Of a stretch of 64,000 nucleotides of DNA, positions 4,076 to 15,485 are shown piece after piece. This DNA comes from Candidatus Latescibacterota bacterium (GTDB taxonomy: Bacteria; Latescibacterota; UBA2968; UBA8231). The translations under genes and the position numbers were made by a program. The stretch lies in assembly GCA_965217585.1 (NCBI GenBank), contig OZ244561.1:5216001-5280000 (forward strand). The letters run 5' to 3'. The notes under the pieces are model-generated. The model did no database searches and was not told the origin of the DNA. It saw only the letters and a program-made list of their open reading frames with translations. Position 1 is the first letter of the stretch. Each line of letters starts with the position of its first letter.

Positions 4076-5995
4076 CTACTTCTTGTCGTCATCAACGACC
4101 TTGAAGTCCGCATCCACTGGCTCCGTATCCCCGCTCCCTTGAGGCTGACCGGCGGCACCTTCTGGCGCTGGCTCGCCCTGGGCCTGTTCGGCTTGGGTGT
4201 CCTTGTACATTTCCTCCGCCAGCTTGTGCGACGCCTGTTGCAGCGCGGTCATGGCCTGATTGATGGCCTCGTCGTCCGTGCCTTCGAGTGCTTCCTTTAG
4301 CGCGGTGACTGCGTCCTCAACGCCTTTCTTGTCGGCGTCGGCCAGCTTGTCGCCGTACTCGGCCAGCGATTTTTCCGTCGCGTAAATGAGCTGGTCGGCC
4401 TCGTTGCGGCGATCGACGGCTTCGCGGCGCTGTTTGTCCTCATCGGCGTGGGCCTCGGCGTCCTTCTGCATGGTGTCGATCTCATCTTGGCTCAAGCCCG
4501 AGGACGACTCGATGTGAATGGATTGCTCCTTGCTGGTGCCCTTATCCTTGGCCCCGACGTTGAGGATGCCGTTGGCGTCAATGTCGAAGGTCACCTCGAT
4601 TTGAGGCATGCCGCGCGGGGCCGAGGGGATGCCGTCGAGGTGGAAGCGGCCGAGGGTGCGGTTGTCGTTGGCGAATTCCCGCTCGCCTTGCAGCACGTGG
4701 ACCTCCACCGAGGGCTGGTTGTCCGAGGCCGTGGAAAAGATCTGGCTCTTCTTGGTGGGGATGGTGGTGTTGCGGTCGATCAGCCGCGTCATTACTCCGC
4801 CCATGGTCTCGATCCCCAGCGACAGCGGCGTCACGTCGAGGAGCAGGACGTCGTCGACGTCGCCAGCCAGGACGCCAGCTTGGATAGCCGCGCCCAAGGC
4901 CACCACCTCGTCGGGGTTGACGCTGCGGTTTGGCTCTTGGTTGAAGAGGGCTTGGATGGTCTCTTGGATTTTGGGGATGCGCGTCGAGCCACCGACCAAA
5001 ATCACTTGGTCTATTTCGCTGGCTTGCAATTCGGCGTCGGCGAGGGCTTGCTGGCAGGGGCCCTTGGTGCGCTCGATCAGGTCGTCAACCAAGCGCTCAA
5101 ACTGGGCGCGGGACAGGCTGGTTTGCAAGTGCTTCGGCCCCGTTTGATCGGCGGTGATAAACGGCAGATTGATTTCGGTCGCAGTGGAGGAAGACAGCTC
5201 GATCTTGGCTTTTTCGGCCGCTTCCTTGAGCCGTTGCAGGGCCATAGGGTCGCGGCGCAGGTCGATGCCCTCGTTCTTTGCAAATTCCTCGGCGAGCCAA
5301 TCGATGATTTTCTGGTCGAAGTCGTCGCCGCCAAGGTGGGTGTCGCCGTTGGTGGATTTGACCTCAAAGACGCCGTCGCCCAGTTCGAGGATGGAAATGT
5401 CGAAGGTGCCGCCGCCGAGGTCGTACACGGCGATCTGCTCGTTGGTGCCGCCCTTATCTAAGCCGTAGGCCAGCGCCGCGGCGGTCGGCTCGTTGACGAT
5501 GCGCAAAACCTCCAGGCCGGCGATGGTGCCCGCGTCCTTGGTGGCTTGGCGTTGGGCGTCGTTGAAATACGCCGGGACGGTGACAACGGCTTGTTGCACT
5601 TCCTCGCCCAGATAGTCTTCGGCCGTCTGCTTCATCTTTTGCAAGATCATGGCCGAGATTTCCGGCGGCGTGTGTTCCTTGCCGTCGATTTTGGCCACGG
5701 CCATGTCGCGGCCACTTGGGGCCACTTCGTAGGGAACTTCGCTTATTTCGTTGGCGACTTCGCCGTAGCGGCGGCCCATGAAGCGCTTGATCGAATAGAC
5801 CGTGTTTTGCGGGTTGGTGACGGCTTGGCGCTTGGCGGTCTGGCCGACGAGGCGCTCGCCGTCTTTGGTGAAACCGACCATGGAGGGCGTGGTGCGGCCC
5901 CCTTCGGAGTTGGGGATGACCTCCGAGTCTTGGCCTTCGATGACGGCCACGCACGAGTTGGTGGTGCCTAAGTCGATGCCGATGACTTTAGCCAT
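4076..5995 (-). CDS. dnaK: Chaperone DnaK (Hsp70)
   Basis: [37 protein letters not shown] motifs; SD AAGGAG upstream of ATG at 5995. Confidence 0.99.
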
Positions 5996-6030
5996 TGTTT
6001 TTTTCTCCTTTTTTGAGGTTAGGGTCATTA

Positions 6031-6291
6031 CTACGTGATCGCGCTCGATTTAGTGGTGAAAATGTTTAGCGGTTCGATTTCCACACGGACCACATCAAAG
6101 CCTGCTTTTCTGACATGCGCCAGCGCAGAAGTGATGGCGTCCTCCAACGACGGGGCTTCTCGGTGAAAGTGAACCTGCGGGACACCAGCCATAGTGACAA
6201 GCGTACCGTCATTGAAGATGCCGTAGAGTCGATCCGATTCTTCTTCGTTGGGATCGGCTGTTAAAATAAGTGTGAATTCATGCACTCTCAT
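6031..6291 (-). CDS. HicB-like antitoxin N-terminal domain (no C-terminal HTH)
   Basis: HEFTLIL...[18 protein letters not shown] pattern; SD AAGGA; immediately downstream of HicA-like gene. Confidence 0.55.
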
Positions 6292-6303
6292 GGTAAGTTC
6301 CTT

Positions 6304-6543
6304 TTATCTATTCCCTTCATAATGAGGGCAATGGTCAATGTAGCGGCAAATGTCCCGTGCATGTCGTTCAGGGTTCAGCGGCGTTGACATGACTCGAATG
6401 CGACAGCCTTCGCGGGTGCGTTTCGGACACCATAATGTACCCCATATATGAGCTCGAGGCCCAGCTTTCGTGACGCTCCATTCTTTGCTTTCAGCGTAAC
6501 GAATCGCATCGCGGATATGTTTGTTTGAGTGGCTAGCTCGCAT
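6304..6543 (-). CDS. HicA-like small basic protein (putative toxin)
   Basis: 79 aa, H.NK.I..AI.YAE..W...AH.WG.L.C...C...V.STP.NPE.HA pattern resembles atypical HicA dsRBD-fold proteins. Confidence 0.55.
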   Translation of the reverse strand: MRASHSNKHIRDAIRYAESKEWSVTKAGPRAHIWGTLWCPKRTREGCRIRVMSTPLNPERHARDICRYIDHCPHYEGNR

Positions 6544-6559
6544 TGAGTTGTTCTATTGA

Positions 6560-6590
6560 GCCTTAACGCAAGGATGGTCTGCGTTAAGGC
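6560..6590. promoter_or_regulatory. Perfect 11-bp inverted repeat upstream of hicA-like gene (operator or stem-loop)
   Basis: gccttaacgca-N9-tgcgttaaggc. Confidence 0.5.
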
Positions 6591-6600
6591 AGTCCAGTCT

Positions 6601-6778
6601 CCTCAGAAGCGTTTTAAAATCCTCTCAAAAGCGTTCTTAAAATCCCCGTCGGGCTGCTTTTACGGGGCTGTCGAGTGGCCTTGGCGTCAAGCGTTTTTAG
6701 AGCGCGCGACGCCCTTGGTTCCAGATGCTTGGAACCAAGCGAGAGACCGAAATCCTAGTTTTAAGAACGCTTCTGAGG
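6601..6778. mobile_element. MITE/REP-like non-autonomous element with ~20-bp terminal inverted repeats
   Basis: Left ends cctcagaagcgttttaaaa (6601-6619) and tctcaaaagcgttcttaaaa (6623-6642); right end ttttaagaacgcttctgagg (6759-6778); internal hairpin cttggttcc...ggaaccaag. Confidence 0.6.
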
Positions 6779-9700
6779 TAGAATACGTCGGGCCAGCCCT
6801 TCCTTAAAATTGGTGGTACCCGGAGAGAGCTGGACGAGATCAAGAGTACCATCCTCACGTCCAATTTTTACGAACCGTGCAACCGGCCCCTCTTGCCTTG
6901 GTGATAGGCACTTCAAGTGCCCGAATACGATGACGGCATCCCGCGCCCTCGACAGAGCGACATTGAGACGATGTTCATCGAGCAAGAACTGAACGCGGCC
7001 GCTATTCCTCGTCATCAGAAGGATCACAATATCCGCTTCACCACCTTGAACCGCATCTACTGTGGTAGTACTTACTTTGAATTCGAAATTCAAGTTCTTG
7101 ATCTCGTTGGCAACGGCAATCTGTTGAGCTTTATATGGGCAAATCACCAAAACGCTGGACGTTACACCTTTAGTATGCTGCTGAAGGTGCTCAAGCACAG
7201 CGCGAAGTGCCTTCCTCTCAGTGGGATTTTCTATCGACTTCGAGGATTGACTCTTGGAGTGGCGATAGGTCGAAACTTTTGTGAAATCGACGAATACCAA
7301 TCGCTTGCTTGTTAGCGTCCAGCCACCGTCTTTTCTATGGGATTTGAGGTTCCCATCGTAAAACAAATTGCTGATGATGTCACCGATATCTTTGTGCATA
7401 CGGTACTGTGTTGTCAGCATGCCCTTGCTGGAATCTGGTAGCTGGTCGAATATCTCGTGAAACATGTTGCGCCGAAGGAGTTCCTCGACCTCTTTCAAAG
7501 GTAACCTGTAGCCAATATCTTCATCTAAGACGTCGTTTGTCACTGTTGGGGGCAACTGGTTGTGATCGCCAACGAGGATGATCTTTCGGGCAACGGAGGC
7601 AGGAATAAGTAGCTCTGCACCAAAGGCCTTTCCCGCTTCGTCAATAATCGCGATGTCGAACGTGCGATTCCATAACCCAAAGTCGCGTCTAGCCATTCCG
7701 ACACACGTCGCAGTATGGATCCGCCGGGATCCCAAGAGCCACTTCGTCGCTGATTCTCGGCCCTCGCGCGTGCCTAGCAACTCATTCCACCGTTTCCAAG
7801 ATTCGTTCCCACGCTCTTCTTCGTCTGGCTCCTTTCTTGATCCCTCTAACAAACCCTCTAACAAGCGCGAATGCCACACCGGCTCAAGCGCAGTTCCCTT
7901 GATCCGCTCCTTACTGCCGTAACGCACAACTTCCTCAGAGAGCCTGCTCGCCTTCATCAGGAGGTCGTTGACGAGCTTGGTGATCGCTACGTGAGTTGGG
8001 GCTGCAATAAGAACGCTAGGCCATGTCTGTTCTTGCCCTTGCTTGAAAAGCGAAAGAAGCCACTTCACGAGAAGCGTAGTCTTCCCAGTACCAGGTGGGC
8101 CCCAGACTGCCACAACAGCTTCGTCAGAGTTCAACAACCTCTCGACAGGTGCCCTGCCGAGTTGACGATTTTTAATGGCATCACCTGATAGACCGAGAAG
8201 AGTCGAATGAATCCTTGGAGAAGCAAACTTTCCAAGAATGGCATGCTCAAGTGCCCTAGATAGGGTTTGCTGCTGCGACCCCTCGGCCTGTTCAATGCGG
8301 GAAAGTCCGAACGGATTGATATCTCGAGGGGTCGCCTCGGACGGGACATCGAGTTCGAGACGACAAATGCCAAGCCGTCGATCTTCCCAGGTGGCACGTT
8401 TCACCTCCCAACTGAGATCATGCCCAACTACCCGAAGTCTGGTGTACCCATCAGCGGAAACGGCTTCGTCAACCCAGTCGGGAGGTTCGTTGTCTAAAAT
8501 CGTGCCAACAACGATACGCCCGCCACGTTTGATCTCGCCGGGAAGAAAACCGCAGGAACCCGTTATTTGCTGGTACTCTTGTTGGTCTTGATAGATCAGT
8601 GACAGTTTCCTCAGGTGGAGCGCCGTTCTGCGTTGCAGCAGCATCTGCTTCTGACTGCTGAGTTCCGCATGTATGGCTTCGACGAACAAATTGAAGAGCG
8701 AGCGATCTGCTGCTTCGTCATCTGGCGTCCCTGGTACAAAAGCGGTGATACTAGCGTGAATACGAATGGAGATCTGCGGATCGGTTTCATCGAAGAGCAC
8801 ATCTTCGAGGACAAATGCCTTATGTCCCGAATCGACCGTCGTTACAAGTGTGGCTTGACCCATCGTGAAGGCAATTCTGCCTGATTCCATAAGATGTATT
8901 CGCCAAGGGGCACCAGTCTCATTGGAGATACGTTCGTGTGCCTGCACGAGACGTGACAACATCGCTTCGTTAACCGACAGCAGGATGGGTGCCCAATACT
9001 TGCGGCTGCCTCCAACACGAGGATGAGCACGCACATGGAGAGGCTGATCGCTGTGTCGGTGCGTGATCTCTCGTAGCGTCCATATTTCGGGATAGACATC
9101 TGCGTTGGTCTCGGGCGTTAACCAACTATAATCTTGTGAACTTTTACAAGGCAGAATAAGTGAAGCGTCAAGATACTCAAGTAGAATGCCCTCTTCATCC
9201 CGCCGGATGACCTTTGCGGGTAGTGCCCCGCCACCATCGATCAGGTTGGCCTCGAGCAAAGCGGCACCTGTAGTCGTTACATTTGCAACTCGCTTCTCGT
9301 GGTCGACATTGAAAAGCATTGCGCGTCCATTGAGGTCGCTGAACCAATCTTCCACTTTGAGGCGGTAACCATAGAGTTGCTTGGGGATTTCTCCTTCAAA
9401 ATGGATTAGCCCGGCCTCTCTTGGGAAATCATTGGGTAGCTGAAGGGTTGCTGGACTCGGGATCTCGCTATGGGCACCATTTGCTGCAGTAGAGAGTTCT
9501 ATCTCTAGCTGCATCAAATAGGCCCTTTCCGCATTGATTCGGCTCAGGGCAAGGTCAAGTTCCAAAACGATCTGGCAAAAAGAATCAGACTCGCGGAGGC
9601 TTCCGAAAGGCTTCTTCAGAATCTCACGAGCTTTTTTGTGGCCAGCATCTAATTCGGTAGCAACGGCATTCCTCGTAGTGAGTTCTTGGTCAACGAGAGA

Positions 9701-9886
9701 ATTCAAATTCCTCAGGTAGTCATTGATCAGAGGACTCCTTGCTTTTGCATCAGCGGCATGAATTTGGGCAAGCTGTGCCTCTAGCGCATCAATTTCTTCC
9801 TTAACCTCAGCGGTGCGACGATTATTCCACCAGCTAACGGCACTAGCCGTGAGGCTGATTCCAGCGATGGCGAGTAGGGGTATCAC
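6761..9886 (-). CDS. Superfamily-1 (Upf1/DNA2/NAM7-like) helicase with N-terminal hydrophobic anchor and coiled coil
   Basis: GPPGTGKTT, IAAPTHVA, IIDEAGK, LVGDHNQLPP, QYRMH, TVDAVQGGEAD, RLNVALSRAR; GTG start overlaps upstream stop (GTGA). Confidence 0.9.
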   Translation of the reverse strand: MIPLLAIAGISLTASAVSWWNNRRTAEVKEEIDALEAQLAQIHAADAKARSPLINDYLRNLNSLVDQELTTRNAVATELDAGHKKAREILKKPFGSLRESDSFCQIVLELDLALSRINAERAYLMQLEIELSTAANGAHSEIPSPATLQLPNDFPREAGLIHFEGEIPKQLYGYRLKVEDWFSDLNGRAMLFNVDHEKRVANVTTTGAALLEANLIDGGGALPAKVIRRDEEGILLEYLDASLILPCKSSQDYSWLTPETNADVYPEIWTLREITHRHSDQPLHVRAHPRVGGSRKYWAPILLSVNEAMLSRLVQAHERISNETGAPWRIHLMESGRIAFTMGQATLVTTVDSGHKAFVLEDVLFDETDPQISIRIHASITAFVPGTPDDEAADRSLFNLFVEAIHAELSSQKQMLLQRRTALHLRKLSLIYQDQQEYQQITGSCGFLPGEIKRGGRIVVGTILDNEPPDWVDEAVSADGYTRLRVVGHDLSWEVKRATWEDRRLGICRLELDVPSEATPRDINPFGLSRIEQAEGSQQQTLSRALEHAILGKFASPRIHSTLLGLSGDAIKNRQLGRAPVERLLNSDEAVVAVWGPPGTGKTTLLVKWLLSLFKQGQEQTWPSVLIAAPTHVAITKLVNDLLMKASRLSEEVVRYGSKERIKGTALEPVWHSRLLEGLLEGSRKEPDEEERGNESWKRWNELLGTREGRESATKWLLGSRRIHTATCVGMARRDFGLWNRTFDIAIIDEAGKAFGAELLIPASVARKIILVGDHNQLPPTVTNDVLDEDIGYRLPLKEVEELLRRNMFHEIFDQLPDSSKGMLTTQYRMHKDIGDIISNLFYDGNLKSHRKDGGWTLTSKRLVFVDFTKVSTYRHSKSQSSKSIENPTERKALRAVLEHLQQHTKGVTSSVLVICPYKAQQIAVANEIKNLNFEFKVSTTTVDAVQGGEADIVILLMTRNSGRVQFLLDEHRLNVALSRARDAVIVFGHLKCLSPRQEGPVARFVKIGREDGTLDLVQLSPGTTNFKEGLARRILPQKRS

Positions 9887-10368
9887 TTAGTTGCGTCGCT
9901 ATTATCTAGCCTCACGATTTGCACGATTTGGTCGGATAGTTGCAATAGGGATTGACGTGCCTCCTTTCTATCATCTTCACTGAGATCAGCATCCATGACC
10001 TGCTTATAGAACCCGTCAAATACCAACAACAGACTCATCAGTGCTTCACGGGATAGCTCAAGCTTCTTCATTAGAGGCTTGTTCTTTTCTTGGGCCATCT
10101 TTAGATCGACTTCCGCCTTCTTGACTGCGATCTCAGCTTCTTTGATACGTCCTTCCCACTCCTCACGTACGGACTGAAGTTCGTTGTAGGAGCGGAACGC
10201 ATCGGGAAAAGCTTTGATAGCCTCAATCAATACCATTATCTTAGCTCGTCTCGTCTCAGCGTCCTGCTCTATGTACACATTTGGTATCTTGCTGAGCTCC
10301 GTGACAGGTTTGACAAGCTCTTTGCTAAGCTCAGCGGCGGCGGGAAGTGTCAGCATTGCATGGGACAT
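9883..10368 (-). CDS. Hypothetical alpha-helical/coiled-coil protein
   Basis: 161 aa, SD GAGGAG, 3 nt after upstream stop, stop overlaps helicase start. Confidence 0.8.
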   Translation of the reverse strand: MSHAMLTLPAAAELSKELVKPVTELSKIPNVYIEQDAETRRAKIMVLIEAIKAFPDAFRSYNELQSVREEWEGRIKEAEIAVKKAEVDLKMAQEKNKPLMKKLELSREALMSLLLVFDGFYKQVMDADLSEDDRKEARQSLLQLSDQIVQIVRLDNSDATK

Positions 10369-10371
10369 CGT

Positions 10372-10884
10372 TCACTCCTCTGTTTGGACCGAAGTCTCGT
10401 TATAGTTTTTGAGTACGTGGCAAAGATCTGTCCACACGTTTTCCAGCGATTGTAGTTGACTGTCAAAGGCTTCCAAGTCCGGCAGTTCGGATGAACGAAT
10501 AACCGCGAGTTCATCCCAAGCCGTTCTACATACACGGCTACAAGCCAAGGCCAACGCACCAATCCTTCTCTGGACATCCTGTTCTTGTTTTATTGTCTCC
10601 TTGGCTAAATCCAGTTGTTCGCCGAGTTGTTGAAGCTCAAGTCGCAGTCGTTCTTCTTCGTGCGGAATGAATTTTCGTAACCCGTCTCGATGCTCTCTGG
10701 TGGCTCTGAGTTTCAGATAGGACTTCACGGCATCCGCGACTGAAACTGCCGCCTCGATAGTCAACAAAGTAGGATTGGCTTTTGCTGCTGCTCCCGTCAG
10801 ACCCTTCTTAAGACCATGCTTGGCAGCAAGTCTTGCACTACTTGCCATAAAAATGAGAGCGTGTCTGGGGACGCGGGTTGTCAT
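10372..10884 (-). CDS. Hypothetical coiled-coil protein
   Basis: ATG at 10884 overlaps stop of the S1 gene (TGATG); heptad-like E/Q/L-rich central helix. Confidence 0.8.
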   Translation of the reverse strand: MTTRVPRHALIFMASSARLAAKHGLKKGLTGAAAKANPTLLTIEAAVSVADAVKSYLKLRATREHRDGLRKFIPHEEERLRLELQQLGEQLDLAKETIKQEQDVQRRIGALALACSRVCRTAWDELAVIRSSELPDLEAFDSQLQSLENVWTDLCHVLKNYNETSVQTEE

Positions 10885-12461
10885 CAACTCATCCTTACAA
10901 TGCACCAAGAAGCTGGAAGTAGATGCTTTGCAACCTCACCTGAAGCCAAAGGGGTGCCATTTTTGCCTAGCGAGGGTAAACAAGGGAAAGACGATCCTTC
11001 TTGTTCCCAGACACGAACGCGCTTTTCATCCTTCAGTTGCCATACTGTAGCTGTGTACGGTTCAAAAAACAGGGTTTCAAGAGGCGTACCGTTCTTCCGC
11101 GCAACTGCATGGCATTGGGCCATGAGAAAGTTACGACATCTTAAGTTTCCATTCGCAGGACGAAATGGTTTCTTCCCAAGGGGTTCGAAGGCGACCCACA
11201 GTCCAGCCAAGAGCCAGTGTTCCGGTGTGTCAACGTAAACGGGTTTCCACGGAAGTGATCCGTCACGACGCAGGAACACGCGCAATCGGTCGTCCTCTTG
11301 GAGACGTGCAAGTATTGCTCTCTTATCTTCGGTGACAATGTGATTTATGGGCAGTTCAGGCAAAGCCTCGTCAGCCGTTCGGACAAACCTATCCTCCTCT
11401 AGTCTGTTGAAAGGGGGGCGAGGCCAAGTACTAGGATATTCGTCCTGTTCACGCTGGTCTTCGACGCGGATGAATTGGGAGGACGGGTATGCAGCACTCG
11501 CAAACAGGCCATGAATGGGGTCCGCATTGAGCTCTCGAGCACGAGCCATAGCCTCGGTAAGGTGCTCGCCTTTTGCGCTTGGACTCCATGATTCGACTAA
11601 GCCTTCGTCAACGAGGACTCTATGCACCTGATCAAGTGCCGAACAAGGCAAGCCTGTCGTCGACTGAATATCGTCCCGCGATCTTCCTGCGGCGAGCTCC
11701 TCTAGGACGTAGAGTACAACCGGATCACAGTTTTGCGGTGTTTTTGCAATCCCCCATACTTTGAAGGGCAGGCTACTGAACGCGACTGATATTTTTGGAG
11801 ATTCGGGCTGTGGCATACATGCCCGGAGGCTTCCAATGGCTTGAGCTCGCCGTTTCCGCTTGTTGGTCAACCAGCCTTCGGGAAGCTCCACACGGATGAT
11901 TTCGACCTCAGCTTCGTCCCCAAGGGCAACAACTTCGGAAGGATGGTCAATCCATGTCCAGTCGAGTTCCACGATAGGCAGCCAGACTTGGAAAGAACCC
12001 GAGTCTAGGATTGCGCCATGGTCCTTAAAGTCGATGATCTTGCCCTTGACTCGATCACCTTCATTCAGGCCTGAGAGTGCTTCACGAGTTTTGGCTTCGG
12101 CGGCAGCGCTGATACTTGCCACCCACCCTTTGAGATCATGCTTAATGAGGACAAAATCGACAGATTGCCCCTCGTGAAGTACATCGGATGGGTGATTGAT
12201 GAGGTCTGCCATATCGTGCAAGAAGACGACAGCCGTAAGCCCCCCTGAAGAGACCTTGACGAATTTATCGCCGACGTAGTCAACGCGGCCACTGAAGAGG
12301 TCGCCAGGGCTTGGTCCACTCCGAACAGTGGTACCTTTCTCCCGTCTGTCCTTCTCTGCCTTCGGGGCACTAGAGATCAAGGCCAAGAAGAGGCCGACGG
12401 CACCGGCGGCAAGGGCGAGGATGACTTTTCCGACCTTGTCTTCATCGGGTTTTTTAAACAT
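10884..12461 (-). CDS. Membrane-anchored protein with two S1 (OB-fold) domains and a winged-helix-like region
   Basis: Start MFKKPDE with SD GGAGAGG; TM VILALAAGAVGLFLALIS; S1 repeats GDLFSGRV...HPSDVLHEGQSVDFV and GDRVKGKI...HPSEVVALGDEAEVEI; HTH-like GRSRDDIQSTTGLPCSALDQVHRVLVDEGLV. Confidence 0.8.
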   Translation of the reverse strand: MFKKPDEDKVGKVILALAAGAVGLFLALISSAPKAEKDRREKGTTVRSGPSPGDLFSGRVDYVGDKFVKVSSGGLTAVVFLHDMADLINHPSDVLHEGQSVDFVLIKHDLKGWVASISAAAEAKTREALSGLNEGDRVKGKIIDFKDHGAILDSGSFQVWLPIVELDWTWIDHPSEVVALGDEAEVEIIRVELPEGWLTNKRKRRAQAIGSLRACMPQPESPKISVAFSSLPFKVWGIAKTPQNCDPVVLYVLEELAAGRSRDDIQSTTGLPCSALDQVHRVLVDEGLVESWSPSAKGEHLTEAMARARELNADPIHGLFASAAYPSSQFIRVEDQREQDEYPSTWPRPPFNRLEEDRFVRTADEALPELPINHIVTEDKRAILARLQEDDRLRVFLRRDGSLPWKPVYVDTPEHWLLAGLWVAFEPLGKKPFRPANGNLRCRNFLMAQCHAVARKNGTPLETLFFEPYTATVWQLKDEKRVRVWEQEGSSFPCLPSLGKNGTPLASGEVAKHLLPASWCIVRMS

Positions 12462-12627
12462 TAGCCACCTCTCCTGTTCTCTGCCTCGGCAATGGCGACA
12501 GCCCAAGATCGTGGACGCTCCCGCTTGGAAGGTTGCTTTCTCCTCCAAACAGTAGGTCATTCCAAGGATTCACCGATCCCCACCGTCGTTACTATTATTT
12601 AAGATAGCTCTATAATGAGCCAGGCAT

Positions 12628-12792
12628 TCATGCGTCGTCGTCTGGCCAAGGAGCCTCTTCCGCGTTGAGCCGGTCTGTGGCATGATTGTAGTCGTCTTCG
12701 GCGTGTACCCAGTTCGCATTATCTTCGTCCTCTTCAATGCGGTTGTGGAGGTCTTTTTCGTAGTCGTTGGGGTCGGGTACGTCTTGGGGCAT
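12628..12792 (-). CDS. 54-aa highly acidic small protein (not in ORF track)
   Basis: AGGAGG-5 nt-ATG; MPQDVPDPNDYEKDLHNRIEEDEDNANWVHAEDDYNHATDRLNAEEAPWPDDDA; 19 D/E versus 3 K/R. Confidence 0.7.
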   Translation of the reverse strand: MPQDVPDPNDYEKDLHNRIEEDEDNANWVHAEDDYNHATDRLNAEEAPWPDDDA

Positions 12793-12943
12793 GGTGTCCT
12801 CCTATGAATTAGAGGAATTGTTCTACTTCCTCCTACGAAGGGGCTCAGCATGGGCAGCGATGTACCCGCCCAGTGCCGCAGAGGCCGATTCCCTCCACGA
12901 CGTTCAATGATAGTTTTTCTGCTTTTGTTGGGTGTAATGGGCA

Positions 12944-12983
12944 GCAGGTAGCGTATAGGGCGATCCCCCCAGACGCTACCTGC
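12944..12983. terminator. Stem-loop downstream of GIY-YIG-like gene
   Basis: gcaggtagcgt...acgctacctgc 11-bp perfect stem; no clear U-tract on the minus strand. Confidence 0.4.
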
Positions 12984-13007
12984 CTTCCTTACTTGACTTA
13001 AAGTATT

Positions 13008-13241
13008 TTAATAGCCAGCATGGTCAAATACATACACGTACCAACGTGCATGTTCTGGCCCGGCTCCACCGGGCGAAGCGTCGCAACCGCAAGAGCGGGC
13101 GATCCTATTCTCTTCCTGTTGAGCTGCCGACTTGGAGCTATGCCTACTGACAATCCTCCAATTTCTAAGGGTGGAGTACTCGGATTCCCATTCCCGCTTT
13201 CTCCTGTCAGGGTCCGTAGTGATCCCAACTCTACAAGCCAT
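13008..13241 (-). CDS. 77-aa GIY-YIG-like microprotein (apparently circularly permuted)
   Basis: SD AAGGAG/AAGGA; MACRVGITTDPDRRKREW ... KSAAQQEENRI ... WYVYVF. Confidence 0.65.
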   Translation of the reverse strand: MACRVGITTDPDRRKREWESEYSTLRNWRIVSRHSSKSAAQQEENRIARSCGCDASPGGAGPEHARWYVYVFDHAGY

Positions 13242-13439
13242 GTCCTTACTCCTTATGGCTATTGTTCTGGACGCCGCTGTCTGGTATTTCCAGTTCGTAA
13301 GCATCCGGGACGTTATGGGATAGTTAAAAGCAAGATACGTACCACCCTATAATTAAGAATAAGATCGGCTAAAAAGCGCCTTTTGGCGACACGATGGCAG
13401 CGATTTGTGTTATCGTGTCATTAATATGAACGCGGCACA

Positions 13440-13468
13440 TTGACAGGGTGCTGCCATCCGGCTAGATT
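13440..13468 (+). promoter_or_regulatory. sigma70-type promoter of uvrB
   Basis: TTGACA-17 nt-TAGATT followed by AGGAGG SD. Confidence 0.7.
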
Positions 13469-13490
13469 GGCCGCCTAGCAAGGAGGATGA

Positions 13491-15485
13491 ATGGAGCAGT
13501 TTAAGCTGGTTTCCGAGTACTCGCCCGCTGGCGACCAACCCCAAGCCATCGCCGAGCTAGTCGAGGGCGTGCGGCAGCAGCACGCCCAACAGACGCTTTT
13601 GGGCGTGACCGGCAGCGGCAAAACCTTCACCATGGCCAACGTCGTCAAGGAGTTGCAGATGCCGGCCTTGGTCATCTCGCACAACAAGACGCTGGCTGCC
13701 CAACTCTACGGCGAATTCAAGGGATATTTCCCCGACAATGCGGTCGAGTATTTCGTCAGCTACTACGACTACTATCAGCCCGAAGCCTACAAGCCGAGTA
13801 CGGACACGTACATCGAGAAGGAGGTCGAGCGCAACGAGGAGATCGATCGCTTGCGGCTCAAGGCTATCAGCTCGCTGGTGCAGCGCCGCGATGTGATCGT
13901 CGTCGCCACGGTCTCGTGCATTTACGGCATTGGCTCGCCCCGCGAATACAACGAACAGAAGGTCTCTTTGCGGCGAGGCGAGCAGGTCGAGCGCGACGAC
14001 ATTTTGCGCGCCTTAATAGACATCTATTACAGCCGCAATGACTTCGAGCTACAACGCGGCTGCTTTCGGGTGCGGGGCGACATCGTCGAGATCGTGCCTG
14101 GGTCGGAAGACCGCGCCGTGCGCATCGAGATGTTTGGCGATGAGATCGAGGGCATTTACCTGATTGACGCGCTCACCGGCGATGTGTTGGAGCCGCGCGA
14201 ACACGTCAGTCTCTTCCCGGCCAGAGCCTACGTGACCGACGAGGAGCGGGTAGAGCAAGCCTGCGAGCAAATCCTCGTCGAGCTGGAGCATCACCTCCTC
14301 GACCTGCGCACCGAAAATAAGCTGGTGGAGGCGCATCGTTTGGAGACGCGCACCAAGTACGATTTGGAGCTGGTCCGCGAGGTCGGCTTCTGTCCGGGGA
14401 TCGAAAACTACTCGCGCTACATGGACGGGCGTCAGCCGGGTTCCGCTCCGTATGTGTTGCTCGATTACTTCCCCGAGGATTACCTGCTTTTTATCGACGA
14501 GTCGCACGTGACCGTGCCGCAGATCCGGGGCATGTTTCGCGGGGACCGCTCGCGCAAGGAGACCTTGGTCGAGCACGGCTTCCGCCTGCCGTCGGCCTAC
14601 GACAATCGGCCGCTGGTGTTCAAGGAATTTGAGGAGCGGATGGGATGGACGGTCTTCGTGTCGGCCACGCCGGCGGAGTACGAACTAAAGCAGTCGGGTG
14701 GTGTGGTGGTCGAGCAGGTGATTCGGCCCACGGGATTGATCGATCCCTCCATTGAGGTGCGTCCCCAAGAGGGGCAGATCGACGACCTCGTCGAGGAAAT
14801 AAGGCAGCGGGCCGAAAGGCAAGAGCGGGTCTTGGTCACGACCATGACCAAGCGCATGGCCGAAAACCTCGCCGACTACTTTGAACAACTCGACATCCGG
14901 GTGCGCTACCTGCATTCGGATATCGAGACGTTGGACCGCGTCGAGATCCTCCGCGATTTGCGCTTAGGGAAATTTGACGTGCTGGTGGGGATCAACCTGC
15001 TGCGCGAAGGCTTGGATTTGCCCGAGGTCTCGCTGGTGGCCGTGCTCGACGCCAGCAAGGAGGGTTTCCTGCGCTCGGAGGTCGCACTGATCCAAACGGT
15101 TGGCCGCGCGGCCCGCAACGTCGCCGGCATGGTGATCTTCTACGCCGACCGCGTCACCAATTCGATGCAGAAGGCCATCGACGAGACCTATCGCCGCCGC
15201 CACAAGCAGGAGGCGCACAACGCCGAGCACGCCATTGTGCCGGAGACCATATACCGCAGTCGGGAAGAGATCATCCAGGCGACCTCGGTGCTCGAAAGCG
15301 TGCGCGGCGTTGCGCCCGAATTGGCAGCCGAGCCGACCGTGAATTACCAAGAAATAGAAGACCAAGAGGAACTGCTCGCCGACTTGGAGCAGCAGATGAA
15401 GGCCGCAGCGGCCAATTTGCAGTTCGAGAAGGCCGCGCATCTGCGCGATGAAATCACGCGGATCAAGGAGCAGCAGGTGAGTTGA
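13491..15485 (+). CDS. uvrB: Excinuclease ABC subunit B
   Basis: [42 protein letters not shown]-terminal UVR domain. Confidence 0.99.

Follow-up and report, generated by a model that had tools for sequence, protein, structure and literature searches.

A co-inherited four-gene cassette with an S1-domain protein and a Upf1-like helicase: a candidate mobile defense module in Latescibacterota and other bacteria

We analyzed a window of 64,000 nt from a Candidatus Latescibacterota bacterium (GenBank assembly GCA_965217585.1, contig OZ244561.1, positions 5,216,001 to 5,280,000 of the forward strand), in which a tandem row of four minus-strand genes, here called A, B, C and D, occupies positions 6761-12461 (all positions are those of the window). 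These genes are inherited together, in a fixed order and with tight spacing, across several phyla, and occur sporadically within lineages; they almost certainly constitute a discrete, conserved mobile module. Its transfer between distant bacteria and its usual location among anti-phage genes make an immune system not yet described the probable explanation, and the fuller reading, that of an undescribed, horizontally mobile four-gene module of defense-island type that is membrane-associated and senses RNA, is on balance the one we favor. A preceding sequence-only reading had proposed an undescribed membrane-tethered RNA-sensing or defense complex; the unit itself, its unnamed status and its defense and mobile context stand, whereas sensing, tethering and complex formation are carried here as proposals.

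Conservation and mobility of the cassette

The four open reading frames (ORFs) are tightly coupled and were delimited as follows.

10884-12461, minus strand: gene A, 525 aa; two S1 domains, a winged helix-turn-helix (wHTH) and a C-terminal domain; 47 homologous clusters
10372-10884, minus strand: gene B, 170 aa, no family; 1-nt overlap with A
9883-10368, minus strand: gene C, 161 aa, no family; may be distantly paralogous to B
6761-9886, minus strand: gene D, 1041 aa; hydrophobic helix, long helices, two beta domains, Upf1-like helicase

At the A/B junction (TGATG), the stop codon TGA of A (10886-10884) and the start codon ATG of B (10884-10882) have one base in common; the stop codon of B is followed by a 3-nt gap (10371-10369) and the ATG of C at 10368, and the stop codon TGA of C (9885-9883) lies inside a 4-nt overlap with the GTG start of D (9886-9884). 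The frames and junction bases thus agree exactly with the coupled operon proposed earlier. A Shine-Dalgarno-like GGAGAGG is located 7-13 nt 5' of the start ATG of A (12461).

By tblastn across 18 related loci (of which L019 and L024 are identical), the order A-B-C-D was found in 16, while the contigs of the other two (L025 and L026) end just after A. Close gene spacing is retained across these loci, and the four genes diverge in step (Spearman 0.47-0.92, n=12), so that the synteny comparison suggested by the sequence-only reading returned a conserved, co-inherited unit. The cassette is nevertheless rare. A is present at nearly full length in only 4 of 61 relatives, the remaining 57 matching over the S1 domain only; within the phylum, the N-terminal region of D was detected in 4 of 168 genomes (2 of 49 genera), and a search with its profile across 1.84 billion representatives retrieved 35 proteins (E<=0.001). 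The closest public genomes with the cassette are Latescibacteria/Latescibacterota metagenome-assembled genomes, and the names of its other carriers include Halomonas, Sandaracinus, Caballeronia, Variovorax, Duganella, Marinobacter, Pseudomonas citronellolis and Acidobacteriota, the named relatives being Beta- and Gammaproteobacteria, one myxobacterium and Acidobacteriota. Viral contigs contained no relative of A, and plasmid and phage records gave no match to the N-terminal region of D; a search of plasmids with P0117, a distant relative of D described below, gave a match confined to its helicase-containing part (query 413-1043).

Comparison with other genomes delimited the inserted segment.

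6618-13378, no strand: insertion of ~6.8 kb relative to same-genus genomes, comprising the cassette and ~0.9 kb upstream (blastn, low GC)

In blastn alignments to genomes G019, G001 and G027, homology ends at ~6617 (6322-6371 in G001 and G027) and returns at 13327-13384, and window segment 6618-13378 is missing at the same site in all three. G019 and G001, which belong to the same genus, have DnaK, one or more PDC-M06-like genes and then UvrB at this site, while G027 and G011 carry the cassette at another site, between sigma-70/PhyH genes and an M3 peptidase. In four runs, contigs of other organisms have loose ends at 6658, 6697 and 13384. In agreement with the compositional distinctness noted earlier, the GC content is 0.48-0.54 over 6001-13500, compared with 0.59-0.62 in both flanks. 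No att-type direct repeats were found flanking the insertion.

Domain composition of the four proteins

AlphaFold2 (AF2) models were made for whole A and whole D. The model of A, built with 18 homologues, has a predicted local distance difference test score (pLDDT) of 83.3, with residues 1-47 disordered. The features of its gene are listed below.

12102-12317, minus strand: first S1 domain (residues 49-120), an S1 barrel in the AF2 model
11808-12086, minus strand: second S1 domain (residues 126-218), an S1 barrel in the AF2 model
11514-11744, minus strand: winged helix-turn-helix (residues about 240-316; AF2 model, fold matches)
10887-11504, minus strand: C-terminal alpha/beta domain (residues 320-525), no known family, pLDDT mostly >75
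12454-12573, minus strand: out-of-frame remnant of the usual amphipathic N-terminus of A (39 codons from GTG, then a stop; from translation)

The tandem S1 domains that had been read from the sequence are recognized by Pfam (S1, 5.4e-13, in two stretches) as well as in the model, and S1 and HTH were the only families matched in 18 homologues of A. By NCBIfam, fold and sequence matches, their nearest relatives are the domains of ribosomal protein bS1. Unlike bS1, A usually has two S1 domains (not six or four) followed by a wHTH and an unmatched domain, and it scores 51.6 bits against the rpsA equivalog TIGR00717, far below the cut-off of 577; the window genome carries its own rpsA-like gene elsewhere. 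For the C-terminal domain, a profile of 15 homologues gave no Pfam match and none below E 0.03 among Protein Data Bank (PDB) sequences, its members share no consistent Pfam family, and an ESM Atlas search with A 215-525 returned no usable match.

In the window, A begins with a hydrophobic stretch (Kyte-Doolittle hydropathy, KD, 2.41). Among the 47 clusters, however, the N-terminus is hydrophobic in 5, forms an amphipathic M-[GS]-x-W helix in 31 and is shortened or different in 11, so the hydrophobic N-terminus, judged by these sequences, is a sub-lineage trait. A DNA alignment of the 5' end of A with L001, L002 and L016 supports the out-of-frame remnant listed above, and compared with L001 and L002 the window has ~150 extra bases, which code for the hydrophobic N-terminus. 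An assembly indel was considered as the cause of the frame difference and rejected, because contigs of runs X1 and X2 are identical to the window sequence (although they may share its source sample) and because the hydrophobic start recurs in five clusters. Separately, run X6, from another study, holds a cassette variant at 7692-11536 with ~5-7% differences and in-frame indels of 12 nt and 3 nt, which diverges from the window sequence at 11536, within gene A.

The model of D has a pLDDT of 82.0, and the protein is represented by 50 clusters, nearly all of ~1030 aa.

9827-9883, minus strand: conserved hydrophobic N-terminal helix (residues 2-20), then basic residues; putative membrane anchor
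9482-9811, minus strand: three long helices (residues 26-135; DSSP on the AF2 model, H26-44, H47-90 and H97-135)
8738-9409, minus strand: two beta-rich domains (residues about 160-383), no known family (AF2 model)
8237-8695, minus strand: Upf1-type stalk helices and 1B barrel (residues about 398-550; IGHMBP2/Upf1 alignments)
6827-8164, minus strand: superfamily 1 (SF1) helicase core (residues about 575-1020), Walker A at 596-604

The intact SF1 motifs ascribed to the last protein are indeed complete and are invariant in 24 of 24 homologues. D matches Pfam AAA_11/AAA_12 and possesses the intact motifs I-VI, the pair of RecA domains, the stalk helices and the 1B barrel of a Upf1-like SF1B helicase; its matches to PDB sequences include Upf1 (7.5e-40) and IGHMBP2 (2.3e-39). 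The sequence-only reading had left ~580 N-terminal residues of this protein unexplained. Residues ~398-575 correspond to a Upf1-type stalk and 1B barrel (the VIA alignments of IGHMBP2 and Upf1 begin at model residue 417-419), so that the unexplained region is only about 1-395. The profile of the N-terminal region had no match below E 0.03 among PDB sequences, and its members share no consistent Pfam family; an ESM Atlas search with D 1-575 gave scores of 0.79 or less. A look for further OB folds had been suggested here, but an extra S1 fold in D receives no support from hhalign, which aligned the region to the S1 domains of A with a probability of 1.8%, though residues 198-272 do align with such a fold. 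The whole-model fold searches were dominated by S1/wHTH and helicase matches and barely probed D 140-395 and A 320-525.

In 22 of 24 homologues of D, no 19-residue window is more hydrophobic than the N-terminal helix (KD 1.47-2.29), in which and next to which G9, W19 and N21 are invariant; this helix may tether D to the membrane. Hydrophobic anchors had been proposed for both the first and the last protein: that of D is conserved but of borderline hydrophobicity, while that of A does not extend beyond its sub-lineage.

A distant subfamily (P0116-P0127, 1079-1458 aa) has in common with D only the first ~335 positions and a Upf1-like helicase. Among eight members scanned, the helicase was found in seven and a C-terminal Ppx/GppA phosphatase-family domain in two (P0117 and P0120); the named members are from Pontibacillus and Ignavibacteria.

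Protein B comprises 72 clusters, all of ~166 aa and all annotated as hypothetical. Neither B nor C matched a family in Pfam, NCBIfam, PADLOC or PHROGs, save for a match of 0.015 to the PADLOC LmuB model, and their profiles gave none below E 0.03 against PDB sequences, nor did the profile members agree on any Pfam family. Since hhalign aligns B with C (probability 69%, E 4.3e-05), the two may be old paralogues. A predicted B-C complex scored 0.50 by the interaction prediction score from aligned errors (ipSAE), compared with 0.00 for the best of three controls (own alignments); at least 70% of contacts agree between runs, and the partner pLDDT is at least 70. Of 80 solved complexes, 58 pass the mark used for complex prediction, as do 2 of 110 mismatched pairs, and because the range of passes at or below 0.60 holds only 7 of the 80 solved complexes and both passing mismatches, the prediction lends weak support to a B-C complex. 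Together with gene coupling, it is what suggests that the four proteins may assemble. No result supported the earlier idea that the B/C pair is the effector.

Defense reading and alternative explanations

PADLOC-recognized genes occur within ~8 kb of the cassette in four of six independent contexts. In the window, a PDC-M06A/B-like pair adjoins D; at L017, L019 and L029, a type IIG restriction-modification (R-M) gene (3.6e-272) and a DrmD-like helicase gene lie upstream (also in L022) and HEC-05/GmrSD downstream; L028 and L023 have a SoFic gene nearby (5.4e-118); and in L015 an AbiLi/PDC-M38A-like ATPase is encoded ~8 kb away. In a fifth context (L027), Tn7-like TnsB/TniB/TnsD genes are found upstream of the cassette. 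A, B, C and the set as a whole are unnamed in PADLOC, NCBIfam, Pfam and PHROGs; the literature search found no system of this make-up, although supplements lay outside it and could hold such loci, and no mention of six homologue accession numbers was found. Accordingly, no match to an already described system emerged from the libraries and literature searched. Judged by its neighbors, the module quite probably has a defense function.

We propose the following working model. The four proteins would assemble into a complex on the cytoplasmic side of the cell membrane, where D would be anchored through its conserved N-terminal helix and A would attach by its amphipathic N-terminal helix, or by a hydrophobic helix in the window sub-lineage, with B and C as a putative helical heterodimer that bridges or regulates A and D. 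The bS1-type S1 domains of A would capture single-stranded nucleic acid of the invader (phage mRNA or an RNA genome being the likeliest) and pass it to the Upf1-like motor of D. Upf1-family helicases translocate 5'-3' on RNA or single-stranded DNA (ssDNA), and ATP-driven remodeling could then block the invader or trigger an effector located in D 140-395, A 320-525 or B/C. If the defense function is true, the module would provide a new effector fold or else a way of arresting the invader without a nuclease, as well as a bacterial model for Upf1-type antiviral RNA surveillance; the cultured carriers Variovorax, Caballeronia, Duganella, Pseudomonas citronellolis and Marinobacter make it directly testable.

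Several points weigh against this model. The case for defense comes from neighboring genes only, and one of the six contexts (L001/L002) had no defense gene among the flanking genes scanned; no effector domain was recognized in A-D by Pfam, PADLOC, NCBIfam or profile searches of PDB sequences. The N-terminal helix of D, besides being borderline in hydrophobicity, has an AF2 pLDDT of 43, and complex formation is argued from gene coupling and one weak prediction. Moreover, the ligand could be DNA, because ssDNA is likewise a substrate of Upf1-like helicases and S1 domains, and because a wHTH forms part of A.

RNA sensing is suggested by the homology of A to S1 proteins and of D to Upf1. A clue bearing on the ligand is found in genome G048, in whose A homologue (L015:12788-14818, compared with L044) the S1 pair has been replaced by bS1 domains 1-4 (D1-D4), fused to the wHTH and C-terminal domain of the family, with B, C and D intact downstream. 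Residues 49-380 are 97.9% identical in amino acids and 95.6% in nucleotides to that genome's own rpsA, and they match solved bS1 chains over residues 6-350 (1e-129); with the DNA identity below 100%, we take the gene to be a natural recombinant rather than an assembly chimera. This gene suggests that A acts like bS1 on mRNA leaders or at the ribosome, or mimics bS1, but it is known from one genome only, which likewise counts against the model.

The alternative that survives best is that the same module senses phage or plasmid DNA, either single-stranded or undergoing replication, at the membrane, with the S1 domains and wHTH binding DNA and D working as a DNA helicase. S1-kind OB folds can bind ssDNA, Dna2 and, in part, IGHMBP2 are DNA helicases, and besides the wHTH in A, the neighbors of the cassette are mostly DNA-directed systems (type IIG R-M, GmrSD-like). 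Against this, the closest solved relatives of D are the RNA helicases Upf1, IGHMBP2 with RNA and Senataxin/Sen1, and the S1 domains of A are of the bS1 type, being in G048 the mRNA- and ribosome-binding D1-D4 of the host itself. We regard DNA sensing as rather unlikely, and, given a defense function, we lean slightly toward RNA over DNA as the ligand.

It is also conceivable, though improbable, that the module is not an immune system but a mobile accessory module of RNA metabolism or stress, acting for example in mRNA quality or translation control at the membrane. A bS1-like partner beside a Upf1-like helicase does recall RNA surveillance, the L001/L002 context includes a sigma factor and metabolic genes, and an effector and matches in phage or plasmid records are both lacking; but such a role sits poorly with the sporadic occurrence (4 of 168 genomes), the spread across phyla, the insertion at a variable site and the defense genes or, in the fifth context, Tn7-like transposition genes that accompany the cassette.

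Mokosh systems combine a COG1112 helicase with a phospholipase D (PLD) nuclease, and type I MkoA includes a kinase (Millman et al. 2022 preprint). MkoA is the best profile match of D in PADLOC (4.5e-92 over D 581-995, and 1.2e-77; MkoC, 2.7e-33), and type I Mokosh resembles the cassette in its Upf1-like (COG1112-type) helicase core and defense-island setting. That the cassette is a Mokosh variant, with its nuclease encoded elsewhere or hidden in an unmatched domain, is nonetheless highly improbable, because no PLD nuclease, Ser/Thr kinase or other nuclease family was matched in A-D (as the sequence-only reading had noted), the MkoB model has 0 matches in the 94.6%-complete window genome, the MkoA match is limited to the helicase part (positions 624-1080 of 1112) of a model that is not specific (it matches in 13 of 14 control genomes), the N-terminal half of D consists of anchor, long helices and beta domains, and A, B and C, which are not Mokosh components, always accompany D. 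Elsewhere in the window genome, a second Upf1-like helicase gene (G000:C1:6254344-6256233, a 968-aa frame) matches the MkoA model at 2.9e-70, and frames at ~5.06-5.07 Mb match the non-helicase N-terminal part of MkoA (positions about 51-499).

Other systems offer partial parallels to the module. CoCoNuT types II/III pair the Upf1-like helicase CnuH with McrBC homologues (eLife 2024, PMC11090510); their prokaryotic Upf1-like helicase likewise possesses a stalk, an OB/1B barrel and coiled-coil segments, and RNA targeting is predicted for them too, from domain content, whereas an S1 protein is not reported in the available text. In contrast to CoCoNuTs, the cassette has no McrB/McrC-type (CnuB/CnuC) genes or nuclease and has a putative membrane anchor. 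The nearest parallel in idea is the Tiamat-like type VI-A candidate defense locus, in which S1 domains fused to a GHL ATPase with DUF3684 stand beside a Upf1-like helicase with PIN (bioRxiv 10.64898/2026.09.30.754977); unlike these, A has a wHTH and an unmatched C-terminal domain without GHL/DUF3684, and D has no PIN. Unlike eukaryotic Upf1, IGHMBP2 and Senataxin/Sen1, D lacks a CH domain and Upf2-type partners and bears a bacterial N-terminal anchor and helices. Defense systems centered on helicases are known, but we found no described system that combines a Upf1-like helicase, a bS1-type RNA binder, two private partners and a putative membrane anchor without a recognizable nuclease.

The kinship with bS1, to which the S1 domains of A are nearest and whose D1-D4 persist nearly unchanged in the G048 homologue, allows a bolder version, which we consider improbable: A could be a built-in mimic of ribosomal bS1 and the module a bacterial counterpart of Upf1-centered antiviral RNA surveillance. 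Phage factors that exploit bS1 include the replicases of ssRNA phages and S1-dependent nucleases. Phage RNAs or such factors would engage A at the membrane and load the Upf1-like helicase, halting infection without a classical nuclease, and the G048 version would be a freshly made decoy.

Surroundings of the insertion

The left neighbor of the cassette is Hsp70/DnaK, judged from its sequence alone, and the right neighbor is UvrB. The two small genes beside D had been taken for a toxin-antitoxin pair, but they match only the PADLOC candidate PDC-M06A/B (8.1e-21 and 7.1e-06) and no Pfam family. The PDC-M06A/B-like pair (window 6031-6543, minus strand; also L041-L043) is present in many genomes of the genus at varying distances from dnaK, and in G019 a duplicated 150-nt 5' fragment of dnaK lies beside it; the dnaK/PDC-M06 site looks like a variable hotspot. 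Two further ORFs are located within the insertion 5' of A and are not conserved beside the cassette at other loci. One, of 98 aa (13008-13304, minus strand), is the microgene earlier called nuclease-like; its match to T5orf172 (GIY-YIG-like) is sub-threshold (19.3 bits, cut-off 20). The other, of 93 aa and rich in Thr/Pro (12570-12851, minus strand), gave no match.

An Rfam scan of 5900-13600 returned zero matches, and the sequencing runs listed included no RNA holder. Promoter-like sites numbered 11 (5.0 +/- 2.5 in shuffles) and terminator-like sites 7 (8.3 +/- 3.3 in shuffles), counts that have no bearing on the operon ends. Finally, a 19-nt motif occurs three times (6602-6620 and 6624-6642 on the minus strand, 6759-6777 on the plus strand), whereas 0 of 100 shuffles gave three matches; the two direct copies are located 5' of the PDC-M06A-like gene, the third is inverted and covers the stop codon of D, and the motif may be an operator, a long hairpin or an insertion trace.

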